This document shows, piece by piece, positions 10,771 to 64,000 of a stretch of DNA of 64,000 bases. Numbering within the stretch: the stretch's first letter is position 1; each line of letters begins with the position of its first letter. The stretch is from Octopus vulgaris (lineage: Eukaryota): positions 42,966,001 through 43,030,000 of the forward strand of contig OX597822.1 of assembly GCA_951406725.2 (NCBI GenBank), read 5' to 3'. The notes under the pieces were generated by a model. That model had not been told where the DNA came from. It saw nothing but the letters and a program-made list of their open reading frames with translations, and searched no databases. A program made the translations under genes and the position numbers.

Positions 10771-10920
10771 CATGTGTGTATACATGTGTGCATATATGTA
10801 TACATACATATTTTCAACTTTGGCCCTTACTGTCCGTGTTTCTAAACTCGCATTGGTATCTCAGCCTTCCACCCTTCTACCCCTCTGCCTTCTTCTCAAC
10901 CTCCACCTCCTCTTCCTTAC

Positions 10921-11217
10921 CTTCCTCGCAATGGTCACTACTGCTACATGTGCTACAGGTATTGGTCGGTGTATCAAAAGCACTACTACTAACATCTTCA
11001 CCACCACTACCGCCATGATCCCCGTCACCACCGCCACCACTACTATTGTCACCACCACCACCACCACCGTCGCCGCCGCCATCACCGCCGCCACCACCAC
11101 CACTACTAACACAATTAATTTTTTTACTTTTACAAACACTACTACTACTGCTACTACTACTACTACAAAGGCCACAACTAATACTATCAATACTATTACT
11201 TTTATTATTATTACACT

Positions 11218-11262
<45 letters not shown>

Positions 11263-11268
11263 CACTAC

Positions 11269-11299
<31 letters not shown>

Positions 11300-11348
11300 T
11301 TACTACAACAACTACTACTACTGCTGCTGCTTTTATTTTTAATTTCCT

Positions 11349-11425
<77 letters not shown>

Positions 11426-12315
11426 CTGTTGCTGCTGCTGTTGCCGTCATCACCGGCATCCTGTTGACTTCGACGCTTGGTACTCCTAAAACTAGCATGC
11501 TTAACCACTCTACTACTACCAGCACCACCATCACTACTACTGCTGCTGCTGCTACTACTATTACTACTACTACTACTTCTACTACTACTATTACTACTAC
11601 TACTCCTCCTACTACTGCGGATAATCAAAACATCGTCACCATTGACACCCCTTTGATGATTAACCCCCCCAATACCGCCACTACTGTGGTCACTACAACT
11701 GGAAGTGGTAGTTCTGCTGCTGCTGCTACTACTACTACTACTACTACTACTATTATTACTACTACTGCTGCTGCTACTACAACTACTACTGTTACTACGA
11801 CTGCTACTATCACCCCCATCAATACGACGACGACCACCGCCACCAGCAAAATGATCATATCTACTATGAATGCCATTACTAATATCACCATTGGTAACGC
11901 AATTACCACCACCATCGCTACTACCACCACTATGTTCCCGCTTAGTGACTTCTCTCTGATACTTCCCACCCTCTTTCAGTTTTATCACTCCCCTCCATGG
12001 GCCTTTCCTTGTTGGTTTCCCAGTCGTCTGTTTCTCAAGATCAGCTTTCCCGTGTAACTTGGCAAACGATTTCTTCTCTATTTTCCTGTTACTTTCAGCG
12101 ATCGCTTTTGCTTCCGCTTCCGCTTTGCTCGCCGCAGTTTTGACTGCATCCGCTATTGCTGATGTTATCGATGTGGTCGCCATTTCATTTGTTGACGTTT
12201 GTGTTTTCGCAGGTGCCTTTGTAGCTTTTGAAAATATTTTGGTTGTTATTTTCGACACGGGTGGCGTTGTTGTTACTGTTCTTTCGTTCGATCTTGTCAC
12301 CGTTGTTGTTTCTGT

Positions 12316-12347
<32 letters not shown>

Positions 12348-13488
12348 CGTTTGTTGTTGGTGTTTTTGGTAATATCGATAATGGTGGCGATGGTGGAGAA
12401 ACTAATGACGGTGAAATAAGACGTTTCGTATCTGAAGGATCGCATAGTCGCTGTTGTTGTTGTATTTGTTGTGTCTCTTGTAATTGAGGTTGTTGGTACA
12501 ATTGTGGTCGTGGTGTTTCTTTTGATCTGAGGAGTTTGGTGTCGTTGCCAAGAATTTCCAAATTTCTCTTCTTCTGACCACTGTTTCTCTGATCATTGTC
12601 TTCTAAAGATATATCAGAAGCAGAAATCGTATCCAAATCTGGATTGATTTCCTTGTCTAGATCTTTATTTGTATCTGGGCCAAGGAGAAAGTCTTTTAAT
12701 GCAGTCTCATGCTTTAAACAGGAACTCAATTCTGGATTGTTCGGTAGCTGGGTTACAATATCATTCTGTGCATCCGAACCGGACGGCGCTGTTTGTTTGT
12801 CGACAGTGTTCTTTACACTCACAACATCACCCGAATTAATGATATGAATGACGTCTTCGACAAAGTTATTTATTTTGTTTGTCATGAAATTTACTCTACC
12901 TTTGGGGGGAATTTTCGTATCACAATTCGTTTCGTAACTATCGCCGAGATTGATTTTCGGTTCAACTTTGGTTTGACCGCTTGTCTTTGGCTGCATCTGC
13001 GTATCTGTGTTTCTGTTGATAGATATGGCATCCCCGACTGCTTTCTCCGACTGCGACAGGACATCTGTCGGTAACATGGTCGATTCTTGGTCGCGTAGTA
13101 TGTCTTTTTTGAGCACATCTGATTCTCTGTCGTTGATTTTATCATCACATATGATTCTTTCATCGCGGTCGCCCTTAGTGTGGGTAGCATCATGGCCATC
13201 GCCCTTATCCTTTGTATCGTTACCACAAGACACATCAACGACCGTTGTTTCGCTGACAGTGCGACTAGAAACACTACTCGTGGCTGTATTTGCAGTGAAG
13301 TTCACCGCGTCTCCGGAATTATCCAAATTGCACAACTGATCAGACCCGTCTTTACTTCCTCCTTTCAACTCACTTTTCCTGTTTCTACTACATTTCAGAA
13401 GCCCACAGGCGATCGAATAATGACTGAGGTTAGAAACTGAATTGATCCGCGATGGATTCAACCGACGACAGCATAAACAGGAGCCCAT
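10921..13488 (-). CDS. Large exon of an uncharacterised, largely disordered protein with an N-terminal MGSCLCC lipidation-type motif
   Basis: About 540 codons of complex, non-repetitive open frame in AT-rich DNA; GAAATGG start context; donor GAAG|GTAAGG at 10921/10920; an apparent 1-nt deletion at 11268/11269 shifts Ser to Val. No domain recognised. Confidence 0.7.
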
Positions 13489-13886
13489 TTCACCTTATTT
13501 ACACACACACACATACACACACACAAACACGCACACACACAATATATATTGCTTTCATAAACTGATTATATTATTTCACATATATTGTTAAATATGTATA
13601 TATGTATATATACACACACACATATGTACATATATAAAATTGATTTATATTTTTCTAAATATACATTATCTATATATATATGATACATACATATTATCTG
13701 TATTTCATTAATGTTTATATATATTATACATTTGATATTGATCCCGTATCTTTTTCTAAATATTTTTTTTGTACTGATTGCACATAACTCGAAAACACAC
13801 ACATATATACAAATATAAGTTATACATAAAGTAGAAATAAATAATACAGATTACTTTCGTATTTGAGTATCTATCGTATGTATGGT

Positions 13887-16808: not shown

Positions 16809-17414
16809 GCATAAATGTATGTATGTATATATATTAAAATTTTGTTGAGATATAGCGTTACAAACAACCAAGTACTAGAACTTAATGTACTTTTTCCTCT
16901 TCAGAATAAAGCGTTGGTCGAGTATAGAGCAGTAATATGAACAATATGAAATTAAATATATGACAAGGGAACAGGATGATGCTTGTGCATCACCTTATAG
17001 CCTTCATTTTAGAAGCTTTGAGGAAACTAGAAGATGATGCACAAACACTCACCTCTGAGAGCACTATTTCTAATGTCAGAAACAGCTGTAAGCTACTGAA
17101 GTTGATTGTGTAATTCTTGTTCTTTTGTCATTTATTTGGATAAAATAAGTCGAAGGCTTGTCTGTGAAACTCGAACCTACATCTGTAAATATGACAGGCG
17201 TTCTACTATTAGAGAAAAGCAATCCGCCGAATTGCTTTGTTCATTTTAAAAACTCTATTCTTACATCGAGAATTATATGTCGTTGACCTCAAAGGAATTT
17301 ATAAAGTTTCGAGAAAATGTGACACAATTCTTGGTTTGAAGGTTGTAAATATTGGCTTTGAAGAGTCCAACGAACAGCCAGGGTTTCTTTTTCTACTGTT
17401 ATTTAAGAAGCATT

Positions 17415-18363
17415 GGCACGGCAGGCCAAATGGCGGTATTTCACTCGTCGCTACATTCTGAGTTCAAATTCCTCCGAGGTCGACTTTGCCTTTCATCCTT
17501 TCGAGGTCGAGTACCAGTGACGTGCTGGGGTCGATGTAATCGACTAGCTCCAACCGCCAAAATTTCAGGCCTTGTAGCTGTAGCACTTCAACTGGTAATT
17601 ATTTTATCGACCCCCGAAAAGATGAAAGGCAAAGTCGACATCGGCGGAATTTGAACTCAAAACGTAATGAAGCATTTCGTCCAGTGTGTTAACGATTCTT
17701 TCAGCTCGCTACCTTGAACCGGGAATAAATATTCTTTTTTACACTAGGCACAAGGCCCCAAATTTTTGGGGAGGGGGCCAGTCGATTAGATCGACACCAG
17801 TACGCAACTGGTACTTAATTTATCGACCCCGAAAGGACGAAAGGCAAAGTCGACCTCGACAGAATTTGAATTCAGAACGTAAAGACACACGAAACAACGC
17901 TAAGCATTTCACCCGACGTGCTGACGTTTCCGCCAGCTTGCCGCCTTCTATATTTCACATATTCTTTTCTACTCTAGGTACAAGGCCCGAAATTTTAGGG
18001 AGGAGCGGGCCAGTCGATTAGATCAACCCCAGTACGCAACTGGTTCTTAATTTATCGACCCCGAAAGGATGAAAGGCAAATTCGACCTCGGCCGAATTTG
18101 AACTCAGAACGTAGCGGCAGACGAAATACCTATTTCTTTACTACCCACAAGGGCTAAACACAGAGAGGACAAACAAGGACAGACAAACGGATTAAGTCGA
18201 TTACATCGACCCCAGTGCGTACATGGTACTTAATTTATCGACCCCGAAAGGATGAAAGGCAAAGTCGATCTCGGTAGAATTTTAACTCAGAACATAAAGA
18301 CAGACGAAATACTGCTAAGCATCTCGCCCGGCGTGCTAACGTTTCTGCCAGCTCGCCGCCTTA
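17415..18363. mobile_element. Cluster of SINE family B copies (one plus, three minus; 17960-18363 is an X+Y dimer)
   Basis: Repeated GTCGACTTTGCCTTTCATCCTTTCGGGGTCGAT core and AAGGCGGCGAGCTGGCAG head. Confidence 0.85.
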
Positions 18364-20170: not shown

Positions 20171-20354
20171 CCATATGGATCTGTCTAATTGCACCCAAGC
20201 GCTCAGTAAATTTATATAAGGCGTCCTCAAATTTATTTTCTCCAAGTTTTTTAAAAAAATGGATATTTTAAAATGAAAATTTCTACAAATACTTTTGAGA
20301 CGATTATGTTGATCTCGAAAGGATGAACGGCTAAGTTGACTCAAAAGTATTTAT

Positions 20355-20734
20355 TCTTGAACTTTTTTACTTATTTCAGTCATGTGACTGCGGCGATGCT
20401 GGAGCACTGCCTTTAGTCAAATAAGACTCCAGGACTTATTCTTTGTAAGCCTAGTACTTATTCTATCGGGCTCTTTTTGCCGAACAGCTAATTTACGGGG
20501 ACGTAAACACACCAACGTCTGTTGTCAAGCGATGGTGGGGGAACAAATACAGACACATACACACAAACACACACACAGACACAGACATATGCACGACGGG
20601 CTTCTCTCAGTTTCCGTCTACCAAATCCACTGACAAGGCTTTGGTCGACGCGAGGCTATAGTAGGAGACACTTGCCCAGGATGGTACGCAGTGGGTCTGA
20701 ACCCGGAATCATGTGGTTAGTAAGCAAGCTTCTT
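20355..20734 (-). mobile_element. SINE family A body; its head is displaced to 23350-23383
   Basis: The body stops at the target AAGAAGCTTGCTT; the missing head GGCGCAGGAGTGGCGTGTGCTAAGAAGTTTGCTT lies 2.6 kb away in the same orientation. Confidence 0.85.
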
Positions 20735-23349
20735 TATTTCATTACATTTGCCATAAAGGCTGTACATAGAGTAAAGCAGCTTTGCGGGCTGGACAAGGAC
20801 ATTAATGAAATGAATGATAATGAAAGAAAGATAAGGATGGGAGAAGACAAAAAGCGCCCGCCAACTTCTGCTCCTCTGATATATTGTACTTTAAAACCAA
20901 ACATAAAACGAGGTATTAAACCTCTTACAACTTTTACAACTTCTCAATTTTTGGACTTAGCAGTCTATTACAAACAACAACATAGATCAATAATTACATA
21001 TAATATATATAAATACAATACACAAAGCCCCTCCTCCCAGACCTGGCTTACGCTTCCCTTAGGCAATGCACCAGCCCTAGGTCGGGGCCCCAGGTGTATC
21101 TAAACATGTCCTTTGAGAAGGTGTTCATTACCCTGACCATAGCGACATCCGATATGACCTTCGTAGTCACCTGCGAAGGCCACTCCTCGTCCTGTGTCCA
21201 GGGCATGGGCTCCTCCCTCCAGGAAGCAAGCTTTTTTATTTTATCAAATTGGCCATGGAGGCCCTACACTTAGATAAAAATCAAAAAGTCAATCAAGCAT
21301 CCAAAATACATTATCACTTTTCCCTTCCTCCTCTTTCCGGACCCCCAGTCAAATATCTAGCCGCCTGCAGAGCAGACCACGTTGACAGCCGGGAGTTCAG
21401 AAAGAAGGCGAAGTGCCTACTATCAAATGTTTGTATCACACAGTGCCATAATTTATAACTCACCCTCAACATCACTTGTGCCCGCATCCTCCGCCATCCT
21501 CCACGCCTCATTCAAGATCGAAGCGGGTTCCGTGTCGGCGTCGCCCGGGTACAAGCGATATTCCTCATTGAGCCCCTTCAGCCTAAACGTCACGTCAAAC
21601 GTTATGACCTCCACAGCTATCTGCGGAGGCTATTCAGGATCCTGTGTGAAGGCTAAAGGTGCTCTCTTATGGTGCTTTTCCACCACCTTTTCAACCTCTC
21701 CGCCTCTATAGAAGAAGACAAATAATTCGTCTTCCTCCGGGGGTGGGATATCCAATTCTTCCGTTGGCGGCACAGTTCCTGCCAATGGTGTTTCTTCTCC
21801 TGCCGGTGGCACAACCCCAACCGACGTAGTTCCGGGACATTCCGGTACTACGTCACCGACTGCCGGCATTGTCCCGTTTCTCTTCCTCTTTTTTTTCTTT
21901 TCAACTGAGGAAGGGTGCGTCTCCTCCGTGACCGGGAGATTCGCCTTCCGCTCCTCATCCTTAGGATCCTTCGGTGAGCACCCATTGTTGCTCACCTTCA
22001 TCCTCTGGCGGCCCCTGTTTGAGGAGCCCTCCACCTCCTCGGCCGCCTTCATTCCCTCTTCTACAGAGGTCTCACTCAACAACTCTTATTTTGTTCCTGG
22101 GGACAGTTTTTCTTTATATGGCCGGACTCCAGGCACCAATGACACCTGGGGGGGGGGGACCCTCAAGAATCACCGGGTCCCTGCACCCGGCCATTTTCAA
22201 AAAATCTGGAAAAACCAGATTGGCTGAGTGGGTCCAAAGGGTCAAAACAGCTTTTGACCCAACCCAATCAGCCGCAGGAAGAACTTTCACATTAAGAAGC
22301 TTGGTCCCATTGCTACCCAGAACCCGGCGGATATTCTTCTCTATCCACTCGGGTTTTTTCCCGGGTGGCAACCCGCAGACCCAAGCTTTCGTCAACCTCC
22401 TCCCACAATACGTGGGGAGAAAAAAAAAATTTCGTCACCCTCCAAGGGCTGACTCGCAAATTTGTGAGTCATTTCAGGGGTGTCAAATAGCAACCACACC
22501 GTTGCGTATTTGACACTCCTGGAAATGAATTTAATTGTTGGCAAATACTCTGCCAACTCCTTTTCAATTGCTGTCTTTTCGAATAGGGCGATGGTGTCGA
22601 GTGACTTGAAGTAGGTTCTCAACAGCACCGTTCTATCTTCACTGTCTTTCAACCACTTTTTGTGCGGTATAATCTCCCACTCCAAAACCTTATCTTTTTT
22701 TCATTGCCATGTTTCCCTTTTTTTAAAAAATATGTTCAAAATAAAACTTAAAAAGAGAGGAGAGAAAAGAAATCAAAAGAAATACACAATAACCAAAAAG
22801 AAGAAAGTCAAATAAAGTTTAGAAGAAAGAAAGTCAATAGTTCAGAAACACAGCAAATAAAATCTTCCGGCCATTCGGTACTCCCGGCCTAGGTTGAACC
22901 CGAAACGCCACAACTGGAACACAACTTCCACAAAAATTGATATGCAAATTGTTCAATCTTCGGAGGCAAAGACACTCCCTCAAATAGCAGTTTTCACAAT
23001 TATTTTAAAATTCTTCAAAAGGCACAATACTCCTTCAAGCAACAATTCTCATAATTAAGTGAGAAAAATATTCACTCAACATAAACTGGAGATGAATACG
23101 CCCCAAACAAAAATTCTCACAATTCAGCGAGAAAAAATATTCGCTCCATGCAGGCAGAACCAGAATTCTGAATCCAGTAGGACTTCCTACCTGTACAAAA
23201 ACAATTCTCAACAAAAATTCCCACTGGACCCCAAAAGCAGAATCTTACCTTACAATGGAGCTTCAAAATGTTTCAATTCGAGACGGCTTCAAAAGCATGT
23301 CTTACCGCTTTGGTGCCGAACACCACAATTATTCGCACATGCGTAGTGG
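20735..23349 (-). mobile_element. ORF1-only (RT-less) Tx1/L1-related retroelement, copy 1, inserted in a SINE A head
   Basis: 13-bp TSD at 20722-20734 and 23350-23362 (12/13); homologous to 59951-61871; no endonuclease or RT coding sequence. Confidence 0.8.
21453..22710 (-). pseudogene. Gag-like ORF1 (RRM-like region and CCHC knuckle), frameshifted, with an internal stop
   Basis: ORF pieces 22685-22392, 22395-22114 and 22082-21630 align with the 60267-61558 protein; TGG>TAG at 21632-21630. Confidence 0.8.
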
Positions 23350-23584
23350 AAGCAAACTTCTTAGCACACGCCACTCCTGCGCCAATAATTTCATTTGGAA
23401 ATGTAGAAAATTTCATTAAAAATATCCATTTTTCATCATCCGATCGAGCTTATTCGATATTATGAACCTGCACGGGCCATTCATCTCGGTCTTGCATTAG
23501 TCTAAGGAAGTCTTTGGGGGAGGCATCCAGTGTCCCTGGGGGGAGGGTGTTGATCTATAAACGTTGTGTTCGGACAACCTGTTC

Positions 23585-24599: not shown

Positions 24600-24990
24600 T
24601 CAAGTTTTGTCACAATTTTTTTTTTGGGGGGTGGGGGAAGAATCGGTTACATCGACCCAGTGTGTAACAGGTACTTAATTTATCGACCCCCGAAAGGATG
24701 GAAAGCAATGTCGACCTTGGCTGAATTTGAACTTAAAACGTACCGGCAGACGAAATACCTATTTCTTTATTACCCACAAGGGGCTAAACACAGAGGGAAC
24801 AAACAAGGACAGACATAGGTATTAAGTCGATTACATCGACCCCAGTTCGTAACTAGTACTTAATTTATCGACCCCGAAAGGATGAAAGGCAAAGTCGACC
24901 TCGGCGGAATTTGAACTCACAACGTAACGCAGACGAAATACCGCTAAGCATTTCGCCCGGCGTGCTAACGTTTCTGCCAGCTCGCCGCCT
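24600..24990 (-). mobile_element. SINE family B, X+Y dimer
   Basis: Head at 24990; internal junction AAAGAAATA|GGTATTTCGTC at 24760/24759. Confidence 0.85.
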
Positions 24991-25147
24991 AAACAACAAC
25001 AACAACAACAACAATAATAATAATAATAATAACAATATTAACAACAACAACAACAACAACAACAACAACTATAATAATAATAATAATAATAATATTAATA
25101 ATAATAATATTAATAATAATAATAATAATGAATGATGATGATGATGA

Positions 25148-29728: not shown

Positions 29729-29921
29729 AGGAGAGAGAGAAACCCAAAATGAATATGCAAATACTATCACAAATTATCCGACTGTATTTAAAATCAGAAA
29801 AAAAAACATTACATCGGACCTTGCGAGTCTACAAAACAATATTCATTGCACAATATAATTTCTATTGGCTAACTTTGACCAATATTTCGCAAAGGAAAAC
29901 GATATTTACATGTACAAGGAT

Positions 29922-30152
29922 ATATTTCTTTACTACCCACAAGGGGCTAAACACAGAGAGGACAAACAAGGACAGACAAACGGATTAAGTCGATTATATC
30001 GACCCAGTGCGTAACTGGTACTTATTTAATCGACCCCGAAAGGATGAAAGGCAAAGTCGACCTCGGCGGAATTTGAACTCAGAACGTAGCGGCCGACGAA
30101 ATACCGCTAAGCATTTCGCCCGGCGTGCTAACGATTCTGCCAGCTCGCCGCC
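29922..30152 (-). mobile_element. SINE family B monomer with X-type tail
   Basis: Complete head, core and X tail followed by unrelated flank. Confidence 0.85.
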
Positions 30153-31107
30153 TTTACAAGTGCAAGTATATCTGCTCGGTTGGCCCAGCGGACTCCGCAC
30201 ATTGTTAAAACAGCGAGAGGAAATAAACAACATTCCCAATACGACGAGTCCATGCTGATTTTGGGCTCTAGAAAACTTATGCTCCCCAATTTAATGCTAG
30301 AAATATACTTACTTAGCTATTAGTTCATCCATTTCTTGAAATTTTCGCTCAAACTCGATATTTGAAGCCTTAGATTCGTGTTCTGTTTGACTTCCGTATA
30401 CCACCCTCTTTATTTACTTTGCGCCTTTTCGTTATGTCATCGCCAGATTCGTTAATGGCCACATTGAATTCATGAGAAAGTTTTCTTTCTTATGATATAA
30501 AAAAAAAATCTTGAAGAAAATATGTTCTTTTTTAAGTGAAAATTAACGATCAAATTTTCACTTGTATATTTCATAACGATTATCTGACCTACTCCCATCG
30601 ATTTTTATATCAAAATAAAACAAAAACAGTCCTTTTCAACTGTATGATTTTCAACACAAATCATGTTATAGTGCTCCAATGCATTAAACTAGAACGAAGG
30701 CCACCGTTCAGGAGTTTAAAAAAACAAGACAAAAGCAAAACATGCAACAAAAAACAACCCTCATCCCAAACTGGTGAACTTTGTGAATGTGTAGAAATAC
30801 GAGGGTGGCTGAAGGATCCTTGTATGATATGTAAGTGTTGGGGTTTGATCAAAACTACATGAGAATGAGGGTTATATCTAGAACTTTCATATGATATATA
30901 ATTTTCTACAGAAAGAAAATAAATTTTGACATGAAAAGGATCAAGAAAAAGATCTGCTTTTGCGAGGTCAAACTGTGCTCGTCTTCCTTCTACGGCACTC
31001 TACAGTGATACCTAATAAAAGGACCTTAATTCTAGGCTAGAAACTGGCTCCTACTCCAGTGATAAGGAATTAGAAAAAGGAAATAACTTTTTTATAAATC
31101 CTTTAGA

Positions 31108-34650: not shown

Positions 34651-35199
34651 AAACTGGTTAACATATACATACTTGCACATATACGCACACACACATTCAC
34701 ACACTCACATAAACATACATACACACATTCATGTATGTATGTGTGTATATATATATATGTATATGCATATGTTTATATTTACACACACACATATGTATGT
34801 ATGTGTGTATATATGTATGTATATGCATGTATACACACACACACACAAACATACATACACGCACCCATGTATATATGTATGTATGTGCGTATATATATGT
34901 ATATGCATATGTATATATATATATATATACACACACGGACATACAAACATACATGTATGTATGTATTGTGTGTATATATATATATGTATATGCATGTATA
35001 TACACAGACACATATATGTATGTATGTATGTATAAATCTATGTGCATATGTACGTAAATAACACAATAGCCCGTTTTGAATAAATCTTAAATTTGTACAA
35101 AATGGAGGGAGATCTATTCGAAAGTGCTCAACGAAATATTATACAAAAACCAAGGGATATATGCGCTATAACTATCGTTTATGATACAGAACTGAATTA

Positions 35200-36471
35200 T
35201 TGGGTTGTCCGGAAGGTTCGTGCCAATTTATAGTAGCTTACCTTTCGACTTATTTTAGAACATAATTGAGTCCATAAAATAGGATTTGATTACACCTCCA
35301 TTTAGAGCACAGTTTAAGCTATCTTTTCGTGGAAGAAGGTTTATGTTCCTATAACCTGTGTTAATTCTGTGACTATTTAAAATGGAAGATAAGAAAGTTC
35401 ATTTTCGGCACTTGATGCTTTTCTTTTTCCGTAAAGGGGAAATGCCTCGCAAGCAACCAAAGAAATATGCGCAGTTTACGGTGATGGTTCTTTATCCGAA
35501 AGAACTGTACGGAAGTGGTTCGCAAGGCTCCCAGCTGTAGCCTTATTGATAAAGAACGATCAGACAGACCATCCACTACATATGATGACCAAATCAAGTC
35601 ATTATTTGAGAATAATCCACATTGCACAACCCGAAAATTGGCAGAAAGCCTCAACCTATCAAAATCTATCTTCGTGAGCACCTGGTAAAGCTTGGGTACA
35701 CAAATCGCTACAATGTTTGGGTACCACATGAGCTGAGTGAGAAGAACCTTTTGGATTGCATTTCCATCTGTGATTCGCTTTATAAACGGAATGAAAACGC
35801 GCCTTTTTTGAAGCAGATTGTGACAGGCGATGAGAAATGGATTGTCTACCGAAATGTTCATAGAAAGCGATCCTGGAGTAAGCGATATGAGCCACCCTTA
35901 GCTAACCCCAAAGCGGGTCTTCACCATAAAAAAGTCTTGCTTTGTCTGGTGGGATTGGAAAGGAATTCTGTACTATGAGCTTCTCCCAAGTAACCAGACA
36001 ATTAATTCAAGAAATAGTGCACACAACTGGACGAGTTAAAAGCAGCAATTCAAGAGAAACATCTAGAATTAACCAACAGGAAGGGTGTTGTTTTCCAACA
36101 TGATAATGCCAGACCGCACGTTTCTTTGGGAACCAGACAAAAATGGTTGCAGCTCGGCTGGGATGTGTTACTCCACCCGCCATATTCACCAGATATTGCT
36201 CCTTCGGATTTCCACTCATTGAGGTCTCTGCAGAATAGTCTTAATGGTAAAAATTTCAATTCCTTGGATAACGTAAAAAGATACCTTGATGAATTCTTTG
36301 CCATGAAACCACCTCAATTCTGGGAAGAGAGTATTTTCAAGTTAAAGGCAAGATGGAGACGCATTGTGCAACAAAATGGTTCATATTTGGTTGATTAAAA
36401 ATGAAATGGCAAGTATTTATTGACCTTTTTCTTTCCTTTAAAAATCGGCACGAACTTTCCGGGCAGCCCAA
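35200..36471 (+). mobile_element. Full-length mariner (DD34D) DNA transposon; transposase frameshifted (ATG 35382, stop 36398)
   Basis: TIR TTGGGTTGTCCGGAA.. and TA TSDs; WVPHEL, TGDEKW, HDNARPH and YSPDIAPSD motifs. Confidence 0.95.
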
Positions 36472-36509
36472 TAGAATTGTAAAACAAGAGTTACAATAAA
36501 ACCGATATA

Positions 36510-36902: not shown

Positions 36903-37783
36903 GGGTGCGGTGAATAAACTGTTGTCTAAATTACGCAAAAATAAAAATAACCCTGACATCTCATTTTAAAGGATATATTTATCAAAATTACATACAAATA
37001 TCTTGAAATACTAAAGAGTAAATTTATTCAATTAAATCGCCATTGGTTTCAACCATGGCCTCCACACCACTTCGGAATATTTTGCAACTCCTCGGGACGG
37101 TCTCCTTGTTTAATTTGGTGAATTCTGCCATAATCCTTTCCTTCCGTTCATCTTTGGTGTTACAAGGAATTTTGTTGGTCTCTTGCTCAATTGTGTCCCA
37201 CACATAATAATCAAGGGGGTTGCAGCCTGGGGAATTAGATGGCCAGATGTCAGGGGTGATGTGGTCGCAGAAATTGTCTGACAGCCATGACTGGATTCTC
37301 CTGTTTGTGTGGCATGGTGCAGAGTTTTTTGCCAGACATAGGTACTTCCAAGCCACCTTCTTGATCCAGGACAGCACTACCTCCTCCAGGCACTCGATGT
37401 AGGCTTCCGTGTTGAGTCTGAAGCCGTGTGGGAAGTTGAATGGAGCCATAACGTCGCCGTCACTAATGATCACTCCAGACATCATGATGTTCACTGGATG
37501 TTTGATTTTTATCACTCTCGGTATATGTCCTCAGATTGCACTGTCGTCAGATTGACACCCAAACACTCTGAAATGTTTGTATTGGAGCTTCCGACGCGAA
37601 TGCCAAGCAGTACAGCATGTCGTTTCCAAATTTCTGGCAGAGGGAATTGCATCATGGTGCTGTTTTTCTTACAGACGGTGCCCAACTGACTCTACTATAC
37701 TGTGTAAACAAAATTAAAACCAAATAATGCGCTTGCGCAAAATTAAAAATATTAAATGTCGACACTTTATCCATCGCACTCTA
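36901..37783 (-). mobile_element. Internally deleted maT/DD37D-type Tc1-mariner element
   Basis: ORF 37515-37024 with WPSNSPGCNPLDYYVW; imperfect TIRs CAGGGTGCGGTGAATAAA / TAGAGTGCGATGGATAAA; TA flanks. Confidence 0.8.
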
Positions 37784-38025: not shown

Positions 38026-38290
38026 TGTTTATGGAATATAATCGAAGAGCTTAGGTCATTTGACCAACGTTGGGTCGACGTTTCTTGAATATAACAGCGA
38101 ACATGAAAAATATAGCTGTTAACATAAGACAGTAGGACCTACCCACCTTACGTCACAGGCGAGATAGATCTCTTAAATTTAGTTTATATTCCATGCAAAT
38201 ATTGATAAATCTACTTTTATTTGAAAGAATTAAATAATATACAATATTTACTTGAAGAAAATGTTTATCTTCGTGAATTCAACAGCTGTT

Positions 38291-38676
38291 AAGGCGGCGA
38301 GCTGGCAGAAACGTTAGCACGCCGGGAGAAATGCTTAGCAGTATTTCGTCTGCCGCTACGTTCTGAGTTCAAATTCCGCCGAGGTCGACTTTGCCTTTCA
38401 TCCTTTCGGGGTCGATATATTAAGTACCAGTTAAGCACTGGGGTCGATGTAATCGACTAAATACCTAGCTCTGTCCTTGTTTGTCCCCTCTATGTTTAGC
38501 CCCTTGTGGGTAATAAAGAAATAGGTATTTATATTCTGAGTTCAAATTCCGCCGAGGTCGGGTTTGCCTTTCATCCTTTCGGGGTCAATAAATTAAGTAC
38601 TAGTTGCGCACTGGGGTCGATCTAATCGACTGGCCCCCACCCCCAAAATTTTGGGCCTTGTGCCTAGAGTAGAAAA
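38291..38676 (+). mobile_element. SINE family B X+Y dimer with a perfect 16-bp TSD
   Basis: GAATTCAACAGCTGTT at 38275-38290 and 38677-38692; empty paralogous site at 34603-34618. Confidence 0.92.
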
Positions 38677-38938
38677 GAATTCAACAGCTGTTGTCGATTC
38701 ACAGTTAAATTTTATCACTAGTATTATACGTCCGTAAGATTTTGTTCCGGCTTCTTATGTTTAAGTTCTGTGTTCAAACCCCGCTGAGGTTAATACTGGC
38801 TCTCATCCTTCCAAGATCAATAAAATAAATTGTTAGTCAAGTACTGAATCCAATATAGTCGGTCTCTCCTCAATATTACTGGCTAGTTTCTCTCCTTTCC
38901 AAATTGCTGGCATAATTAGAGACATTGTCATTATTATT

Positions 38939-43591: not shown

Positions 43592-44180
43592 TTTGGTTGG
43601 CAAGAAAGTAACTTTGTTCTTCGCAAATAGATAGAATTACAATTTTTTTCAATGACTTTTATCAATGTTAAGATTTTTTCCTTTTGACATTTGATAGCCG
43701 TTACTTTTAACTTACTTTAGAAGCAAATAGCCTGGTATTTTATTTACAGCTGTTTGTTCAGTTTCAATTTTAACATGAAGTGCAAAAACGAATATTTTCG
43801 CCATATTTTGCTTTTCTATTTCCGCAAAGGCAAGAAAGCTGCCGAGGCTCACAAAGAGGTATGTGAAGTTTATGATGTTGATTGCTTAACAGAAGGCACA
43901 TGCCAGAAATGGTTTAAAAATTCAGTTTTGGAGATTTTTCAGTCAAAGATGACCAAAAATTCCGTTCTTGAGATTTTCACCAAAGATGACCTACTGAAGT
44001 TGATGATGATCGAATCAAAGCCATAATTGAATCTAATTGTCATATACCTGTGCGAGAGATTGCAGAGAGATTAAATGTAGCTCAAACAAAAATAGAAAAT
44101 CACTTAAAATGTCTTGGACTCGTTAAGAAGCTCAATATTTGGGTTCCAAATAGGTCGAAAGAGATTCACTTAACGCAACG
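43592..44180 (+). mobile_element. 5' half of a second mariner family (HTH region)
   Basis: MKCKNEYFRHILLFYFRKGKKAAEAHKEVC..CQKWF and LVKKLNIWVP; TIR-like TTGGTTGGCAAGAAAGT. Confidence 0.8.
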
Positions 44181-44314
44181 AAGAGAAAATAACGAATGTG
44201 TAGTAGCTAGTGATATATCATGGCGAATATATATATATATATATATATATAATTTACTCTGCTATGTATTGAGTACCTTATTTACTGTGGTTAACCCCGA
44301 CTCAACCCGGGACC

Positions 44315-44366
<52 letters not shown>

Positions 44367-44453
44367 TGTGTGAAATTTGATTTAGTATTTCTAAATTGAA
44401 TTTTTTCCATGTAAGTTAGGATTAATATTCCATCAAATAATAATAATAATTAT

Positions 44454-52319: not shown

Positions 52320-52987
52320 GTATAAAAATGTATGACTATATATACATATATAGATGTGTGTATACATATAAATACTTATATATGTATATATAGATGTATG
52401 TATATATAAATGCATATACATATATATAGAATGACCTATACACATCTTAATATTTTATACATATGAATATACATGCACACAAGGACAAGGACACACATAT
52501 AAACACAAGACAAACGATGACACTCATACACACACACATTTATGTATAAATTGACAGACCTGAATATATACACATATAGGCTTTCACATGTTGACAGACA
52601 CATTCACACATACGCACGCACATGCATGCACAAAACTGACAAGCATGCTTATGCACACATATACATCACATACATACACACTGAAATATGAAATACAAGA
52701 CACAAGATCACGCACATAAGCTTATGTATATATATATATAGACATAGCGACAGAAGCGTGCATAAACACACTTCAATTCACAGTGCAACCACCGCTAACT
52801 TTGGAGAGCTGTAATTCCAAGTAGACTTTATGCCGGGCTAAGGACACAAAATATTGTTGGTTGGTGGCGTTACGCGAACACATCATTCAGGTTTATCTAT
52901 CCTTAAATCCTTAAAACCCTTAAAAATGTTTTAGCCCGAAGACCGCGGCCATGCTGGGGCACCACCACTGAAGTAAAAAACTGCCTT

Positions 52988-53060
52988 CGCCCACAGGGGG
53001 ACACGAACCCACGACCCTCAGATTAAATGTCTGATGCTCTACCGACTGAGCTATGCGGGC
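52988..53060 (-). tRNA. tRNA-Lys(TTT)-like sequence, probably a pseudogene or SINE head
   Basis: 73-nt cloverleaf close to eukaryotic tRNA-Lys(UUU); deviations U33A, A58T and one T-stem mismatch; T6 run 7 nt downstream. Confidence 0.75.
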
Positions 53061-53232
53061 GCAGCAGCTATCTATATGATCACGTTGGCACTTAAAGAAA
53101 TACAACACCTACCCCTTCTACCTCCCTCTCCATCTTCTCCTTTTTCCTTCGTCCTCTCTCTCTCCCCTTCTCTCTATGCTCCCCACCACCACTCATTCAG
53201 CTCAGTTTTCCTACATTCCTTTTCCTCCAAAT

Positions 53233-53635
53233 AAGGCGGCGAGCTGGCAGAATTGCTAGCGCACCGGGCGAAATGCTTATCGACATTTCGTCTGCCGCTA
53301 TGTTCTGAATTCAAATTCCGCCGAGGTCGACTTTGCCTTTCATCCTTTCAGGGTCGATTAAATAAGTACTAGTTACGCACTGGGGTCGATATAATCGACT
53401 TAATCCGTTTGTCTGTCCTTGTTTGTCCCCTCTGTGTGTAGCCCCTTGTGGGTAGTAAAGAAATAGGTATTTCGTCTCTCTTTATGTTCTGAGTTCAAAT
53501 TCCGCCGAGGTCGACTTTGCCTTTTATCTTTTAGGGGTCGATAAATTAGGTACCAGTTGCATACTAGGGTCGATCTAATCAACTAATCCTCTATCCCCCC
53601 ACCAAATTTCGGGCCTTGTGCCTAGTGTAGAAAAT
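53233..53635 (+). mobile_element. SINE family B X+Y dimer with ~18-bp TSD
   Basis: ATTCCTTTTYCTCCAAAT on both sides; junction at 53465/53466. Confidence 0.88.
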
Positions 53636-55909: not shown

Positions 55910-57431
55910 TTCTTTTATTCTTTTACTTGTTTCAGTCATTTGACTGCAGCTATGCTGGAGTGCCACCTTTTAAGGATTTTTAACCAAAGGAATCGCGTGT
56001 AGGACTCCGGCACCAGGACTTATTCTTTGTAAGCCTAGTACTTATTCTATCGGTGTCTTTTGCCGAACTGTTAGGTTACAGGGATGTAAACACACCAACA
56101 TCGGTTGGCAAGTGATTGCGGAGGCAACGAACACAGGCACAAAGGCATGTACACACACTCACACATGCATACACACATAAATATACACACACACACGCTC
56201 ACACACACATCTATATATACACTCACACATATACACACACACATGCACACACACGCATATATACATATACACACTCACACACACACACACATTTAAGGTG
56301 GTGGTCGAGTATCACCACAGTCAAATTGACTTTAAACAAGTTAAAGATATATATATACCACAGGCTTCATCCGGTTTCCGTCTACAAAATCCGCTGAAAA
56401 GGCTTTAGTCGGGCCGAGGCTATAGAAGAAGACACTTGTTGAAGGCTGTTGTTGTTGTTATTATTGTTGTTGGCCACCTCAGAAGCGCTAGAGCCGCGGA
56501 AGGGAGCTGAATCATCTCATCCATTGTAGCCCCTAGTTGGCGGATATAGCGTTCCACAGTCGGCCGGACATCTCAGCCAGAGATGTTCAGCAGATTCCAC
56601 CTCCTCGTTACAGAGTCTGCATTGATCTGTGTCGCTGCATTCTGCCATCTTTTGCCACCGCCTGAGCGCCGGATGATGACCACTACGGAAGCGTATCATG
56701 TCTGTGAAGTCTACCTTCGAGAGGGCTGCTTCGGTTCTTTCATCCGGCTTCTTCGTGAAGACTTCCTTCAGACGAGGGTGTTGAATTGGCGTTGGCTGGA
56801 ACGTTCGACGAATAACCGCCTGACGAATGGCTGTATCGATGGTGGCATCTGGTTGTGGCAGCACCGAGCCACGTTTTGCCTGCATATCTGCGAGTTCATT
56901 GCCGCGGAGGTTGCAATGGCCCGGCACCCAGGTCACCGTCAAAATCTTGCCAGCTTCTACTAGGGCTGCTGTTTGTTGCAATTCTCTAATTGTCGAGTCT
57001 TGGGGGAACGGGTTGTCTAACGCTTCAACTAATGATTTGCAATCGCAAACTGTAGTTGTGGAGGCCCGGTTGTCATTGGCTTGTAGCCACCGGAGGGCTT
57101 CGTTAAATGCTGCTCGCTCTGAGTGGAATGAGTTGCTGTGAGCTCTAGTCGGGGCGTGCCGCTCGAGGACCACCGCATCGTGTATCAGCACTACCACACA
57201 GGCTCCGCCGTTGGTTGTGCCTTCTCTAGTCGAGCAATCAGTGTAAAAAAATACGTCAGGGGAATTGGGTAGGCTGGCAAGTGTTTGTTGAGCTGTCACC
57301 AGTTGTACATCGACGGGCATCTGCTCCGTGGTGGGAATGTAGACGGTAGTCTTGTTGAAGGTGCCACGCTGAGGGATGAACCCGGGAAGCATGTGGCTGG
57401 GAAGCAAGCTTCTAACCACACAGCCACGCCT
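55910..57431 (-). mobile_element. SINE family A split by a LINE insertion
   Basis: Body at 55910-56445, head at 57351-57431. Confidence 0.85.
56446..57350 (-). mobile_element. 5'-truncated RNase H-bearing LINE (I/Ingi group) with (CAA)n tail
   Basis: FYTDCS, DCKSL, WVPGHCNLRGNELAD and CRLC..ESAEHLWLRC; perfect TSD CTTGTTGAAGG at 56435-56445 and 57351-57361. Confidence 0.9.
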
Positions 57432-57543
57432 TCGACTATAATAAATATTTTTCTCTTTTTCATTGATTTCTTTTAAGATTTAAATAGAAATCAATGTAAA
57501 TGAAAAAAAATCTAGGCCAGTACTGAAATATTGATGACTTATG

Positions 57544-58218: not shown

Positions 58219-58836
58219 AAGGCGGCGAGCTGGCAGAAACGTTAGTACTCCGGGCGAAATGTTTAGCGGTATTTTGTCTGCCGTTACGTTTTGTGTTCAA
58301 ATTCCGTCAAGGTCGACTTTGCTTTTCATCCTTTCGGGATCGATTAAATAAGTACCAGTTACGCACTGGGTTCGATGTAATCGACTTAATCCGTTTGTCT
58401 GTCCTTGTTTGTCCTCTCTGTGTTTAACCCCTTGTGGGTAGTAAAGAAATAGGTATTTCGTCTGCCGTTACGTTCTGTGTTCAAATTCCGCCGAAGTCGA
58501 CTTTGCCTTTCATCCTTTCTGTGTTGATAAATTAAGTACCAGTTACGCACTGGGATCAATGTAATCGACTTAATCCCTTTGTCTGTCCTTGTTTGTTTCT
58601 TCTATGTTTAGTCCCTTGTGGGCAATAAAGAAATAAGAAACGTTAGCACGCCGGGCGAAATGCTTAGCGGTATTCCGTCTGTCTTTACGTTCTGTGTTCA
58701 AATTAAGCAGAGGCCGACTTTGCCTTTCACCCTTTCGGGATCGATAAGTTAAGTACCAGTTGCGTACTGAGGTCAATCTAATCGACTGGCCCACCTCTCT
58801 CCAAAAATGTCGGGCCTTGTACCTAGAGTAGAAAAG
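58219..58836 (+). mobile_element. SINE family B trimer (X+X+Y) with an 18-bp TSD
   Basis: AATAAYGACAGGAACCTC at 58201-58218 and 58837-58854; junctions at 58451/58452 and 58635/58636. Confidence 0.9.
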
Positions 58837-58869
58837 AATAACGACAGGAACCTCCTCTACCCATCGGTA

Positions 58870-59253: not shown

Positions 59254-59381
59254 ACGAAGATGGGTGTGTTAACAACAAACAGATGTACTAGTTTAACGTT
59301 CGAGAAGTGAGAAGTGAGAAGTGAGAAAGTCTTTTACGTTTCGAGCCTAAGCTCTTCGACAGAAAGGAACATAGAAATAAA
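59227..59381 (-). mobile_element. Truncated (TA)n-associated Penelope-like repeat with a minimal hammerhead variant (59331-59366)
   Basis: CTTT-CTGTCGA-A-GAGC ttag GCTC-GAAAC-GTA-AAAG; homologous to 1095-1215. Confidence 0.55.
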
Positions 59382-59843
59382 CGGGCATACGGATCCGTTG
59401 AGGTTCAATTCTCAGAGGAAAAGGTGGCTCGCGGGCACGCCGTGTGCCCCCTGAAGACCAAGGAAGTGGTACTTTTGCCAACGTACAGGGGGCGACGAAC
59501 ATCCCGTGTAAGGATTAACGAAATCCCACCCACAGTAGATCCGAAAGAAGTGGTAGCCGGCCTGTTGTTTAACAGGACGGACCGGATAAACATATTACAG
59601 ACCACAAGTTCCGCCCCACAGATGTGGTTAGGGCGGAACATAACGGTTTTAATACAAGGCAAACAGGAGGGCATTCAGGCCCTACCAGAGAGAGTACTTG
59701 TTGGGGAGAATGTGGCCCTTAGGGTACAGGTGGAAGGCCGTAAGCCCACCTGTTACCAATGCGGAAAAAAGGGCCACATTCGAGCTGACTGTGAAGTCCC
59801 CCAGCCTAGGTCTCTGCTTGAACCAATTAACAATGTCCGTTAA
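59382..59843 (+). pseudogene. 5'-truncated gag-like ORF1 paralogue with a CCHC knuckle
   Basis: KEVVLLPTYRGRRT..VEGRKPTCYQCGKKGHIRADC aligns with KEILFLPTYHGKRL..LEGRPPRCHRCLESGHIKKNC. Confidence 0.75.
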
Positions 59844-59950
59844 GGACGTTAATCGCGGAAGGTAGAACCGAACGTGCGGTGACCACACCTGTTCTCCATC
59901 CAAGTAAAGAATAAGCCATTTGGATTACACTTTTGGATTACCTTTTGGAC

Positions 59951-61871
59951 CAATTTTTGTGGAAGTTGCGTTCCAGTTGCGGCGTTCCAGGTTCAACTCA
60001 GGCCGGGAGTACCGTAAGGCCAGAAGATTTTTGCTGTGTTTTGCTGTTTATTGACTTTCTTTTGAACTTTATTTAACTCCCCTTTTTGTTTTTTTGTTTA
60101 TTGTGACTTTCCGTTGATTTCTTCCCTTCTGTTGTGCTTTCTCCTTTTTGTATCTTCCCTATTTTTTTCAAAAAATCTATCGAATTTTATTAGGACTTTT
60201 GAACTTTTTTGTTCTCGCTTTTTAAGTTTATTTTGAATATATTTAAAAAAAAAAAAAAAAAAATATATGGCAATGAAAAATGACAAACTTTTGGAATGGG
60301 AGATTATACCGCCTAAAAAGTGGTTAAAAGACCGTGAAGATAGGACGGTGGTGTTGAGAACCTACTCCATCGCCCTATTCGAAAAGACGGCAATTGAAAA
60401 GGAGTTGGCAGAGTATTTGCCAACAATTAAATTCATTTCCAGGGGTGTCAGATATGCAACGGTGTGGTTGCTATTTGACACCCCTGAAGAGGCTTGCAAA
60501 TTTGCTAGTAAACCCCTGGAGGGCAAGGAAATTTTATTTCTGCCCACGTACCATGGAAAGAGACTGACGAAAGCTTGGATCTGCGGGCTGCCACCCGGGA
60601 TAAAACCCGAGTGGATAGAGGAGACTATCCGCCGGGGTCTGGGTAGCAGCGGGACTAAGGTTCTTAATGTGAAAGTTCTTCCTGCGGCTGTTTGGGTTGG
60701 GTCAAAAGCAATTTTGACCCTTTGGACCCAATCAGCCAATCTGGTTCTTCCAGATTTTTTGAAAATGGCCGGGTGCAGGTACCCGGTGATACTTGAGGGT
60801 CGCCCCCCTAGGTGTCATCGGTGCTTGGAGTCCGGCCATATAAAGAAAAACTGTCCCCGGGAACAAAGTAGGATCCCGGAGCAGTTAAGTGAAACCCCTG
60901 TAGAAGAGGGAATGAAGACGGCCGAGAAAGCGGAGGACTCCTCAAACAGAGGCCGAAAGAGGAAGGTGAGCAACAATGGGTGCTCATCAAAGGATACTAG
61001 GGATGAGGAGGGAAAGGCGAATCTTCCGGCCACGGAGGAGACGCACCCTCCCTTAGCTGAAAAGAAAAAAAGAAAAAGAGGAAGAGAAACGGGACATTGC
61101 CGGCAGTCGGTGACATAGTACCGGAATGTCCCGGAACTACGTCGGTTGGGGTTGTGCCACCGACAGGAGAAGAAACACCGTTGGCGGGAACTGTGCCGCC
61201 AACGAAAGAATTGAATATCCCGCCCCCGAGGAAAAACGATGTATTGATCCTCTTCCATAGAGGCGGAAAAATTGAAAAGGTAATGGAAAAGCACCATAAG
61301 GGAGCACCTTTAGCCTTGACACAGGACCCCGAATGGCCTCTGCAGGTAGCTGTGGAGGCCGTGGAGTTCGACGTGACGCTTGGGCTGAAGGAGCTCAATG
61401 AGGATTATAGCTTGGTCCCGGGCGACGCTAACACGGAACTCGATTACATTCTGAGGGAGGCGTGGTGGATGACGGAGGGTGCGGGCACAAGTTATTTTGA
61501 GGACGATTCACAAATTGTGATACGACCTAGAGCTGGCGCATTCCTAAGGGAAGTGTAAGCCAGGTCTGGGAGGAGGGGCTTTGTGTATTGTATTTATATC
61601 ATATGTAATTATTGAACTATGTTGTTGTTAGTAATGGACTGTTAAGTCCAAAAATTGAAAAGTTGTAAAAATTGTAAGAGGTTTAATACCTCGTTTTGTG
61701 TTTGTTTTTAAAGGAACAATGTTTTAGAGAAGCAGAAGTCGGCGGGCGCTTTTTGTCTTCTCCCATCCCCATCATCTTTCTTTCATTATCATTCATTTCA
61801 TTAATGTCCTCATCCAGCCCGCAAAGCTAACTTACTCTATGTACTGACTTTATGGCAAATGTTATGAAATA
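59951..61871 (+). mobile_element. ORF1-only Tx1/L1-related retroelement, copy 2
   Basis: Colinear with 22939-20735 apart from a ~350-bp deletion; same 3' junction to a headless SINE A. Confidence 0.8.
60267..61558 (+). CDS. Gag-like ORF1 (~430 aa if the single frameshift in the A-rich run near 61060-61080 is corrected)
   Basis: ORFs 60267-61118 and 61097-61558; CX2CX4HX4C knuckle and basic KKKRKR; copy 1 reads through this point in one frame. Confidence 0.7.
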
Positions 61872-62245
61872 AAGTAGCTTGTTTACCAACCACATGGTTC
61901 CGGGTTCAGTCCCACTGCGTTGCACCTTGGGCAAGTGTCTTCAACTATTGCCTCGGGCCGATCAAAGCCTTGTGGGTGGATTTGGTAGACGGAAACTGAA
62001 AGAAGCCCGTCGTATATATGTATATATGTGTGTGCTTGTATGTTTGTCTGTGTTTGTTCCCCTAGCATTGCTTGACAACCAATGCTGGTGTGTTTATGTC
62101 CCCGTCACTTTGCGGTTCGGCAAAAAGAGACCGATAGAATAAGTACTGGGCTTACAAAGAATAAGTCCCGGGGTCGAGTTGCTCGATTAAAGGCGGTGCT
62201 CCAGCATCGCTGCAGTCAAATGACTGAAACAAGTAAAAGAGTAAA

Positions 62246-62248
<3 letters not shown>
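61872..62248 (+). mobile_element. SINE family A lacking the first ~20 nt of the head
   Basis: Begins at AAGTAGCTTGTTTACCAACC. Confidence 0.88.
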
Positions 62249-62291
<43 letters not shown>

Positions 62292-62907: not shown

Positions 62908-64000
62908 TAGAGTAACCACTCGACTATTGCGGGTGTTACGTTCCAAAACACCCCGCGATAGATGAACATTCGTGAAGTAGAAACAGTACTATACTGTATA
63001 TTTAAAAAAAAATATTTTTATAATTTGTATATATTTATTTTATTATTGGGTTGTCCGGAAAGTCCGTGCCGATTTTTAAAGGAAAGGAAAAGGTCAATAA
63101 ATACTTGCCATTACATTTTAATCAACCAAATATGAACCACTTTGTTGCACAATGCGTTTCCATCTTTCCTTTAACTTGAAAATACCCTCTTCCCAGAATT
63201 GAGGTGGTTTCATGGCAAAGAATTCATCAAGGTATCTTTTTACGTCATCCAAGGAATTGAAATTTTTACCATTAAGGCTATTCTGCAGAGACCTCAATGA
63301 GTGGAAATCTAAAGGAGCAACATCTGGTGAATATGGCGGGTGGGGTAACACATCCCAGCCGAGCTGCAGCAATTTTTGTCTGGTTCCCAAAGCATCAAGT
63401 GTCGAAAATGAACTTTCTTATCTTCCATTTTAAAGGGTTACAGAACTAACACAGGTTATAGGAACATAAACCTTCTTCCACGACAAGATAGCTTAAACTG
63501 TGCTCAAAATGGAGGTGTAGTCAGATCCTATTTTATGGACTCAACCATATTCTAAAATAAGTCGAAATGTAAGCTACTATAAATCGGCACTAACTTCCTG
63601 GACAACCCAATATTTTTATACGCTTAAGCTTTTATAAACTCTCCTCACACTCTAAGGAGTACCTGTATCTTCTCATTTTTTGCGGGTAAGGAACATAATG
63701 ATGGGCAGTTGCTGGCGCTGCCTCTTCTTCTGTGTAAGGAAGAAAGGCTTAGAAGGTACAAAACATTTGAGCGACATCGTAAGACTTGAAATAAATTCAC
63801 AGTTTTACACACAAATGCAAAACAACACCACGCACTCGCCTCCTGAGTTTCGCTTACCTTACAGTATGTGCAATTCTTTGTTTACTCAACTACGGTACAC
63901 TACGTATTTTCTTTTAATATATTTTAATTAATGTGTAATACACTGAAGTTCTGTACTGTGTTTTTATTCATTAGTTTATTAATTATTAGATGTGAAAATG
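62908..64000. mobile_element. Tigger/pogo-like non-autonomous element, interrupted by a mariner derivative
   Basis: End resembles Tigger TIR/subterminal sequence (GCGGGTGTTACGTTCCAAAACACCCCGCG); right boundary uncertain. Confidence 0.45.
63046..63610 (-). mobile_element. Internally deleted derivative of the 35200-36471 mariner
   Basis: Both TIRs and TA TSDs present; ~700-bp deletion joined at a CTTT microhomology. Confidence 0.92.

Follow-up and report, generated by a model that had tools for sequence, protein, structure and literature searches.

ORF1-only retroelements at a fixed base of an octopus SINE head probably depend on a LINE inserted at the same site

Introduction

Long interspersed nuclear elements (LINEs) of the Tx1 clade target other transposons, as do Xenopus Tx1L in Tx1D and crocodilian Tx1-Mar in Mariner-N4_AMi, the latter with SINEU as a passenger, and the target of another Tx1 family, Kibi, is (TC)n (Kojima 2015, PMC4494074). 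In a 64,000-nucleotide stretch of the Octopus vulgaris genome (GenBank assembly GCA_951406725.2, contig OX597822.1, positions 42,966,001 to 43,030,000; the window), we analysed two retroelement copies whose only gene is open reading frame 1 (ORF1) and which join an abundant, putatively tRNA-type short interspersed nuclear element (SINE) at the same base of its head. Copy 1 is a dimer of an ORF1-only element, A', and a short non-coding element, D, while copy 2 belongs to the ORF1-only family A. These elements and their relatives in families B and C, here called riders, very probably borrow the endonuclease and reverse transcriptase (RT) of an L1/Tx1-group LINE found at the same base.

As with Tx1L and Tx1-Mar, a LINE lies at a defined point of a different mobile element, and its target is also used by non-autonomous passengers; furthermore, a sister of the octopus LINE lies in (TC)n, like Kibi. 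The octopus target, however, is a tRNA-like SINE head rather than a DNA transposon, a long terminal repeat (LTR) element or a small nuclear RNA gene, and the octopus passengers, unlike those of Tx1-Mar, encode their own ORF1. The insertion of Tx1-Mar is described as a preference, whereas 92% of exact octopus tails stand at the target hexamer.

The mammalian HAL1 (half-L1) elements are non-autonomous, encode only the ORF1 protein (ORF1p) and have multiple origins (Kojima 2018, PMC5753468). The octopus riders are likewise ORF1-only, mobile and of more than one origin (A/B and C). Different from HAL1, they are found in an invertebrate, insert sequence-specifically and have no poly(A) tail at the junction, and the A/B ORF1 is just 26-30% identical to that of the likely driver; to our knowledge, no site specificity has been seen in HAL1. 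Derivation from mammalian L1 (HAL1 proper) does not hold: ORF1 carries a CCHC knuckle and gave no L1 ORF1 match in Pfam, and the named homologues come from Octopus sinensis (ORF1, 72%) and Argonauta hians (RT region).

Dewa inserts in or near tRNA sequences. The insertion sites of Dada DNA transposons cluster around the tRNA A box and anticodon, with 6-7 bp duplications (PMC8869645). The octopus insertions also lie near an A-box-like motif, in sequence that resembles a tRNA, but Dada is a DNA transposon in real tRNA genes, whereas a retroelement here enters a putatively tRNA-derived repeat just after that motif. The R2 and R2/R1 SIDEs of Drosophila are site-specific riders (Eickbush and Eickbush 2012, PMC3414825), non-autonomous elements that retain the 3' end of their driver and take over its site and duplication, and element D is their nearest analogue here. 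SIDEs, however, are short, built of element ends and located in ribosomal DNA, whereas the main octopus riders keep a selected protein and use a dispersed SINE.

No SINE-targeting LINE with ORF1-only riders was found described in the literature searched, and consensuses of these elements may already be present in Repbase, Dfam or the library of PMC13282606. The words 'target' and 'nested' are absent from the main text and supplement of that curated O. vulgaris annotation, in which L1-Tx1 families are counted, and passages of PMC12988792 and PMC4758252 contain nothing on such a system. The parts are known separately from Tx1L, Tx1-Mar and HAL1, and by analogy the octopus system would work like Tx1-Mar plus HAL1; the combination of a target-specific LINE and ORF1-only riders with a SINE host is new as far as this literature shows.

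Results and Discussion

Insertion at one base of the SINE head

The 2.8-Gb genome was searched, and only the best-scoring matches were examined in each locus set (up to 150 scored per ORF1 search). The last 312 bases of copy 2, free of SINE sequence, gave 40 scored matches at 30 loci, about five of which look like segmental duplicates. The element enters the SINE body at the same base in 28 of the 30 loci, is followed by a target copy and a further element in one, and lies off target in one (L007). At 30 loci retrieved with the 5' end of copy 1, the 5' junction is a SINE head in 26, the tail of another element in three and off target in one. Genome-wide, the 22-nt tail occurs exactly 348 times, and an exact AAGWAG directly follows 320 of these (92%), compared to 0 matches for a reversed control pattern; among 100 tails listed, 98 run into a target copy recognisable by eye. 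A first-pass annotation had claimed a fixed base in the SINE head, and both the 3' junctions and the exact tails bear this out; the random flanks that it had considered as the contrary outcome were not found, element copies lying mostly at the SINE site.

Flanks were compared in 56 elements lying between a SINE head and a SINE body. Their agreement is 75-100% over positions 1-15, the first six of which had been selected for, and falls to 41% at position 16 and 14% at position 17. Private target variants are duplicated in both flanks of L165, L172, L196 and L228. The 13-bp duplication first reported stands at copy 1, with 12 of 13 bases identical, and not for the family, where about 15 bp is typical. 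AAGAAG, taken up as a private variant that would prove the duplication at copy 1, was rejected as such, being an older SINE allele with 5,743 exact free copies. The 5' target copy in some cases matches the element subfamily and not the host allele (e.g. L173, L192, L200, L203 and L184), and old target alleles persist inside younger 5' ends. The elements have a fixed 3' end, variable 5' truncation and a target-site duplication, and neither LTRs nor terminal inverted repeats: they are non-LTR retroelements moved by target-primed reverse transcription. They also form tandem arrays of up to five units (in one SINE on C4), each separated by one target copy.

All families at the site have a common tail motif, and the tail together with the first two target bases reads AATAAA, suggesting that the RNA probably extends slightly into the target. 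Exact free SINE targets number at least 68,385, of which the A allele makes up 8%. By eye, among the matches listed, the A allele follows 21 of 23 older-type tails, whereas all 77 newer tails adjoin the T allele; age layering accounts for much of this pattern, and the elements possibly track a changing target allele. These observations could also be read to mean that pairing between RNA and DNA is what mainly selects the site, the SINE 3' end of a read-through RNA priming at matching nicks with little endonuclease specificity. The AATAAA, with an RNA likely entering the target, the use of one allele per subfamily and the AAG with which even off-target copies, devoid of SINE sequence, still start would all fit such pairing. 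We nonetheless regard it as improbable, since the junction is base-exact in all families, and since L007, a 5'-truncated copy in unrelated DNA where only about four bases match the target, still has a clean 16-bp duplication of its own. Moreover, the allele pattern also fits older elements lying in older SINEs, and target choice is set mainly by the endonuclease according to Kojima 2015 (PMC4494074). Pairing and endonuclease specificity can operate jointly.

Several other arrangements were seen at or near such targets. At G000:C1:68300496-68300546, a tail is followed by an apparent reverse complement of the SINE head, which suggests a rare insertion in opposite orientation at the partly palindromic target. 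At G000:C6:88343036-88343083 and L118, tails are followed by the head of a second SINE family, as off-target or nested insertions. Further units lie at the same target in L233 (2388-3092, about 0.7 kb) and L236 (753-975, 0.22 kb), and L239 contains, from 2429, a further family whose ORF1 resembles that of the partner. Near-identical element and SINE loci with shared flanks on G000:C28 (465-510 kb), G000:C31 and C39 are segmental or assembly duplicates.

A candidate partner LINE

The lead to a partner came from upstream of one copy, where an RT fragment ends in this tail and at this target. A search with this fragment gave 148 scored matches, from which 20 with long open frames were taken, covering the partner and a sister LINE. 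Fourteen of the 20 loci belong to a 5.45-kb family encoding an ORF1 of 467 aa and an ORF2 of 1133 aa, all at the SINE site. Its 3' ends join the SINE body in 13 loci and a tandem unit in one; at the 5' end the target is present in 13 of 14, and the duplication is mostly 16 bp. ORF2-bearing relatives, which the first-pass annotation had suggested looking for, therefore exist at the same SINE target. The partner's tail is similar to that of the riders, and its copies are young, seven full copies averaging 99.0% identity.

The ORF2 contains Exo_endo_phos, RVT_1 and zf-RVT domains, corresponding to an APE endonuclease, an RT and a C-terminal zinc motif. Its best PDB match is L1 ORF2p, with an E value of 8e-67 compared to 6e-20 for R2, a coarse comparison as PDB covers few LINE clades. 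The RT region has a homologue in Argonauta hians (64%), and the RT homologues returned were mostly unnamed proteins and generic RT clusters, with no named Tx1 protein among them. Judged from these domains and matches, the partner RT can be placed, coarsely, in the L1/Tx1 group, and partner and riders likely belong to the Tx1 clade. The sister LINE, at loci L095-L100 (e.g. G000:C29:28016850-28026350), has an intact 1138-aa ORF2 and lies in (TC)n microsatellites in six of six cases.

Riders that keep ORF1 and lack ORF2

Fifty A-type loci were chosen by ORF1, 20 being selected for the length of their open frames, and a few overlap the earlier sets. Where both ends can be placed, A-type elements measure about 2.0-2.35 kb, and an intact ORF1 of 409-427 aa is present in 24 of the 50; C-type elements measure about 1.45 kb, and B- and C-type loci lie at the same site. 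No ORF2 was found inside the element in any of the 50 A-type, 18 B-type or 10 C-type loci, nor in either window element, so the first description of the element as non-autonomous and ORF1-only holds.

The predicted ORF1 layout is two RRM domains followed by one CCHC knuckle: the modelled fold is a tandem RRM with a mean predicted local distance difference test (pLDDT) score of 79.5 and Z scores of 7-9 to RRM proteins. RRM plus CCHC is the ORF1 layout typical of Tx1. The rider ORF1 aligns with the partner ORF1, the CCHC being invariant. The initial label 'gag-like' therefore suits the knuckle only. With our own Nei-Gojobori script applied to the ORF1 core, the ratio of nonsynonymous to synonymous substitution (dN/dS) was 0.09-0.33 in 12 of 15 A-A pairs, and the 13 pairs that include a B sequence, for which dS is saturated, all gave 0.10-0.18; these ratios indicate that the riders' ORF1 is under purifying selection.

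The A/B ORF1 is 26-30% identical to those of the two ORF2-bearing families, indicating an old rider lineage rather than a recent deletion product, and forms its own branch in the ORF1 tree (100/100), from which three B-type ORF1s (L214, L215 and L220) are missing as the knuckle anchor failed on them. The C-type ORF1 sides with the ORF2-bearing families, with a long branch flagged as unsure. The A/B lineage has existed long without ORF2, and ORF2 was probably lost at least twice, with separate ORF1 origins for A/B and C. Of 'HAL1-like', another term of the first-pass annotation, only the gene content (ORF1, no ORF2) can be kept, given the distance from the partner's ORF1 and the failure to find a close ORF2-bearing parent of the A/B ORF1 among the top matches searched.

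Could the riders instead have arisen recently, in the manner of HAL1, by deletion within an autonomous family that escaped detection, carries an A/B-type ORF1 and drives them? Only top matches were scored, 150 each, and 80 L1-Tx1 consensus families are counted in the O. vulgaris annotation (PMC13282606) compared to the two ORF2-bearing families considered here, which leaves such a source some room. It is nevertheless unlikely, more so than site choice by pairing, because the 50 A-type and 18 B-type loci, all without an ORF2 behind ORF1, span roughly 65-100% identity, ORF2 is missing from both A and B at a saturated synonymous distance (1.4-2.3), and the A/B ORF1 stands on its own branch.

Among sequencing runs, none holding a young A element was recorded as RNA. 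A 2,083-nt contig covers most of such an element, from a run whose RNA nature is only guessed, and establishes neither transcription nor the ends of the RNA; 32-43% of the young A element's words are also present in three other organisms, and among the matches listed no contig bridges the junction by 31 bases on both sides.

The host SINE predates the insertions

The divergence of element and host was compared in four groups of loci, after dropping 10 of the 30 loci of the 3' search (five duplicates, two non-SINE and three with deletions). The last 150 element bases are 96.1, 99.2, 94.7 and 94.1% alike within the four groups, compared to 83.9, 93.8, 75.8 and 74.9% for the adjoining 165 SINE bases in the same order. 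The SINE body is the more diverged in every pair (190/190, 78/78, 78/78 and 15/15), by 4-13 times, indicating that insertion took place into pre-existing SINE copies. Moreover, bodies attached to A, the dimer and D are no more like one another than like free SINEs, and when 52 attached bodies are placed on one tree with 24 free ones, the attachment label needs 20 changes (20.8 when shuffled), with no strongly supported branch. The attached bodies are thus mixed with free SINEs and do not form the single clade that had been raised as a possibility, and the variant AGCATCGC, suspected of marking common ancestry, occurs in only 2 of 72 attached bodies and in 0 of 16 free bodies.

Accordingly, a SINE-tailed composite (SVA-like or bipartite) was rejected, the tail not being co-inherited and the bodies being polyphyletic and more diverged than the element. 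That one ancestral insertion was amplified as a SINE-tailed or SINE-wrapped unit by the SINE's own partner LINE is hardly credible, even though some clustering is seen among the bodies next to the autonomous family (7 changes vs 12.2 shuffled) and one composite, the A'-D dimer, was indeed amplified whole, since all pairs show the excess divergence of the bodies, the autonomous cluster also contains free SINEs and A-type hosts, unrelated families have the junction in common, arrays exist and off-target copies lack the SINE.

The SINE carries, by eye, A- and B-box-like motifs at tRNA spacing. It gave no Rfam tRNA match and no default ARAGORN call, while under relaxed ARAGORN settings the number of heads called as tRNA-like, out of 25 free ones, varied with the threshold from 3 to 20, with mixed anticodons; Rfam and ARAGORN thus gave no consistent identity for the parent tRNA. 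In an RNA polymerase III (Pol III) promoter of this layout, made up of an A and a B box, splitting the boxes should silence the SINE. As judged from these motifs, insertion splits the two boxes of the host and would disable its Pol III promoter. Few SINEs are affected, with 348 exact A-type tails compared to at least 68,385 exact free targets.

Proposed mechanism

We propose the following scheme. The partner endonuclease would nick the bottom strand directly beyond the A box of the SINE, and the partner RT would recognise the shared tail and prime at the nick. The cDNA end, often with a target copy, would then anneal to the top strand at a cut lying 10-16 nt further downstream, and annealing of such a target-carrying cDNA would produce the target duplication. 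As the target is regenerated, more elements could stack; read-through of a stack would have yielded the amplified A'-D dimer, and a stop at the internal target copy would give solo D. Finally, each rider's RNA would be coated by the ORF1p that it encodes, which may be why ORF1 is conserved: purifying selection at saturated dS, in elements without ORF2 and with only 26-30% identity to the helper's ORF1, suggests that ORF1p works on the RNA from which it is translated. The SINE would serve as an abundant, low-cost landing site, every insertion parting its A and B boxes.

Several points weigh against this scheme. Trans-mobilisation, endonuclease specificity, the RNA ends and the role of ORF1p are all deduced from sequence. 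The shared tail is not exclusive to the site, the 3' tail of the sister LINE being similar to it, and three close A-A pairs have dN/dS of 0.41-0.48, which is not significant. Long open frames were the criterion by which the partner and young A loci were chosen from among best-scoring matches. Furthermore, the intact partner copies (99%) are younger than the A'-D and D families (94-95%), and these families use the other target allele; the driver of A'-D and D would therefore be an ancestor of the partner or another, unseen family.

More tentatively, with the balance leaning somewhat against it, this SINE may house a long-lived, multi-tier community. It would comprise an autonomous LINE, two or more ORF1-only lineages of independent origin, each with its own selected RNA-binding protein and using only ORF2p in trans, and non-coding riders derived from read-through dimers, their RNA ends carrying the target and tracking a change of the SINE target base. 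If so, this would be a SINE-versus-LINE chase, the inverse of the usual relation in which SINEs parasitise LINEs.

Hundreds of natural insertions make three questions testable: why a non-autonomous element keeps ORF1, how the 5' junction and duplication arise when the RNA carries target sequence, and whether a site-specific endonuclease follows its target as this changes. For study, the young intact partner supplies a natural endonuclease-RT with sequence specificity. In octopus annotation, such insertions would appear as fragmented SINEs or chimeric consensus repeats.

The two copies in the window

The features of both copies are collected in Table 1. Copy 1 had been taken for one 2.6-kb element, which the internal tail and target copy at 21221-21256 rule out: it consists of A', a target copy and D. 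Its ORF1 is interrupted by stops and frameshifts. Exact A' tails run on into D in 12 of 18 cases, and solo D with an identical start point lies in SINEs at 8 of 30 loci in one of the search sets; the first 130 bases of D are similar to the end of a B-type ORF1. On the simplest reading, A' landed beside a truncated B-like copy and the pair was transcribed as one RNA, whereas solo D would have arisen when reverse transcription halted at the internal target copy, which annealed to the host.

Copy 2 ends at 61871 and joins its SINE at the same base, as originally reported, but it begins near 59928 rather than at 59951 and is 5'-truncated; with its 5' end lost, it has neither SINE head nor 5' duplication. 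On its 5' side (59381-59928), pieces of autonomous ORF1, of inverted ORF2 and of the rider adjoin one another, an arrangement that arose through either a template switch in reverse transcription or later rearrangement.

Table 1. Features of the two copies and their surroundings, in window coordinates
Feature	Position	Strand	Remarks
Copy 1: SINE head with A-box-like motif, 5' of insertion	23363-23383	-	21 bp
Copy 1: target site, 5' copy	23350-23362	-	13 bp here, ~15 bp typical of family
Copy 1: ORF1-only element A'	21237-23349	-	5' UTR (untranslated region), ORF1 and short 3' UTR; own tail 21237-21256
Copy 1: ORF1 remnant of A' (predicted RRM-RRM, CCHC knuckle, basic tail)	21453-22710	-	fold taken from intact relatives
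Copy 1: internal SINE target copy separating dimer units A' and D	21221-21236	-	
Copy 1: non-coding element D, 0.49 kb	20735-21220	-	from ORF1 C-terminus and 3' UTR of B-type element
Copy 1: target site, 3' copy, the start of the SINE body	20722-20734	-	matches 5' copy at 12/13 bases
Copy 1: remaining host SINE body with B-box-like motif	20348-20721	-	end at 20348 approximate
ORF1 fragment of the autonomous SINE-targeting LINE	59381-59796	+	94% to locus L087
Inverted ORF2 fragment of the same autonomous LINE	59795-59909	-	97%
Copy 2: 5'-truncated ORF1-only element, family A	59928-61871	+	start approximate
Copy 2: ORF1	60267-61558	+	frameshift near 61080
Copy 2: host SINE body, joined at the same base as copy 1	61872-62256	+	

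Other features of the window

A second abundant SINE-like family occurs at 17400-18363, 24620-24995, 29920-30158, 38290-38680, 53230-53634, 58219-58840 and other positions. A 320-aa frame at 56517-57479 (minus strand) with RNase H and zf-RVT matches is the 3' part of an RNase H-bearing LINE. Transposase-like fragments, Tc1/mariner by eye, lie at 35195-36473, 37024-37530, 43990-44373 and 63044-63615, the first and last being 92-95% alike in inverted orientation. ARAGORN called one tRNA-Lys(TTT) at 52987-53061. At 10861-13494 (minus strand), an 877-aa stop-to-stop frame with a non-repetitive first half is possibly a host exon.

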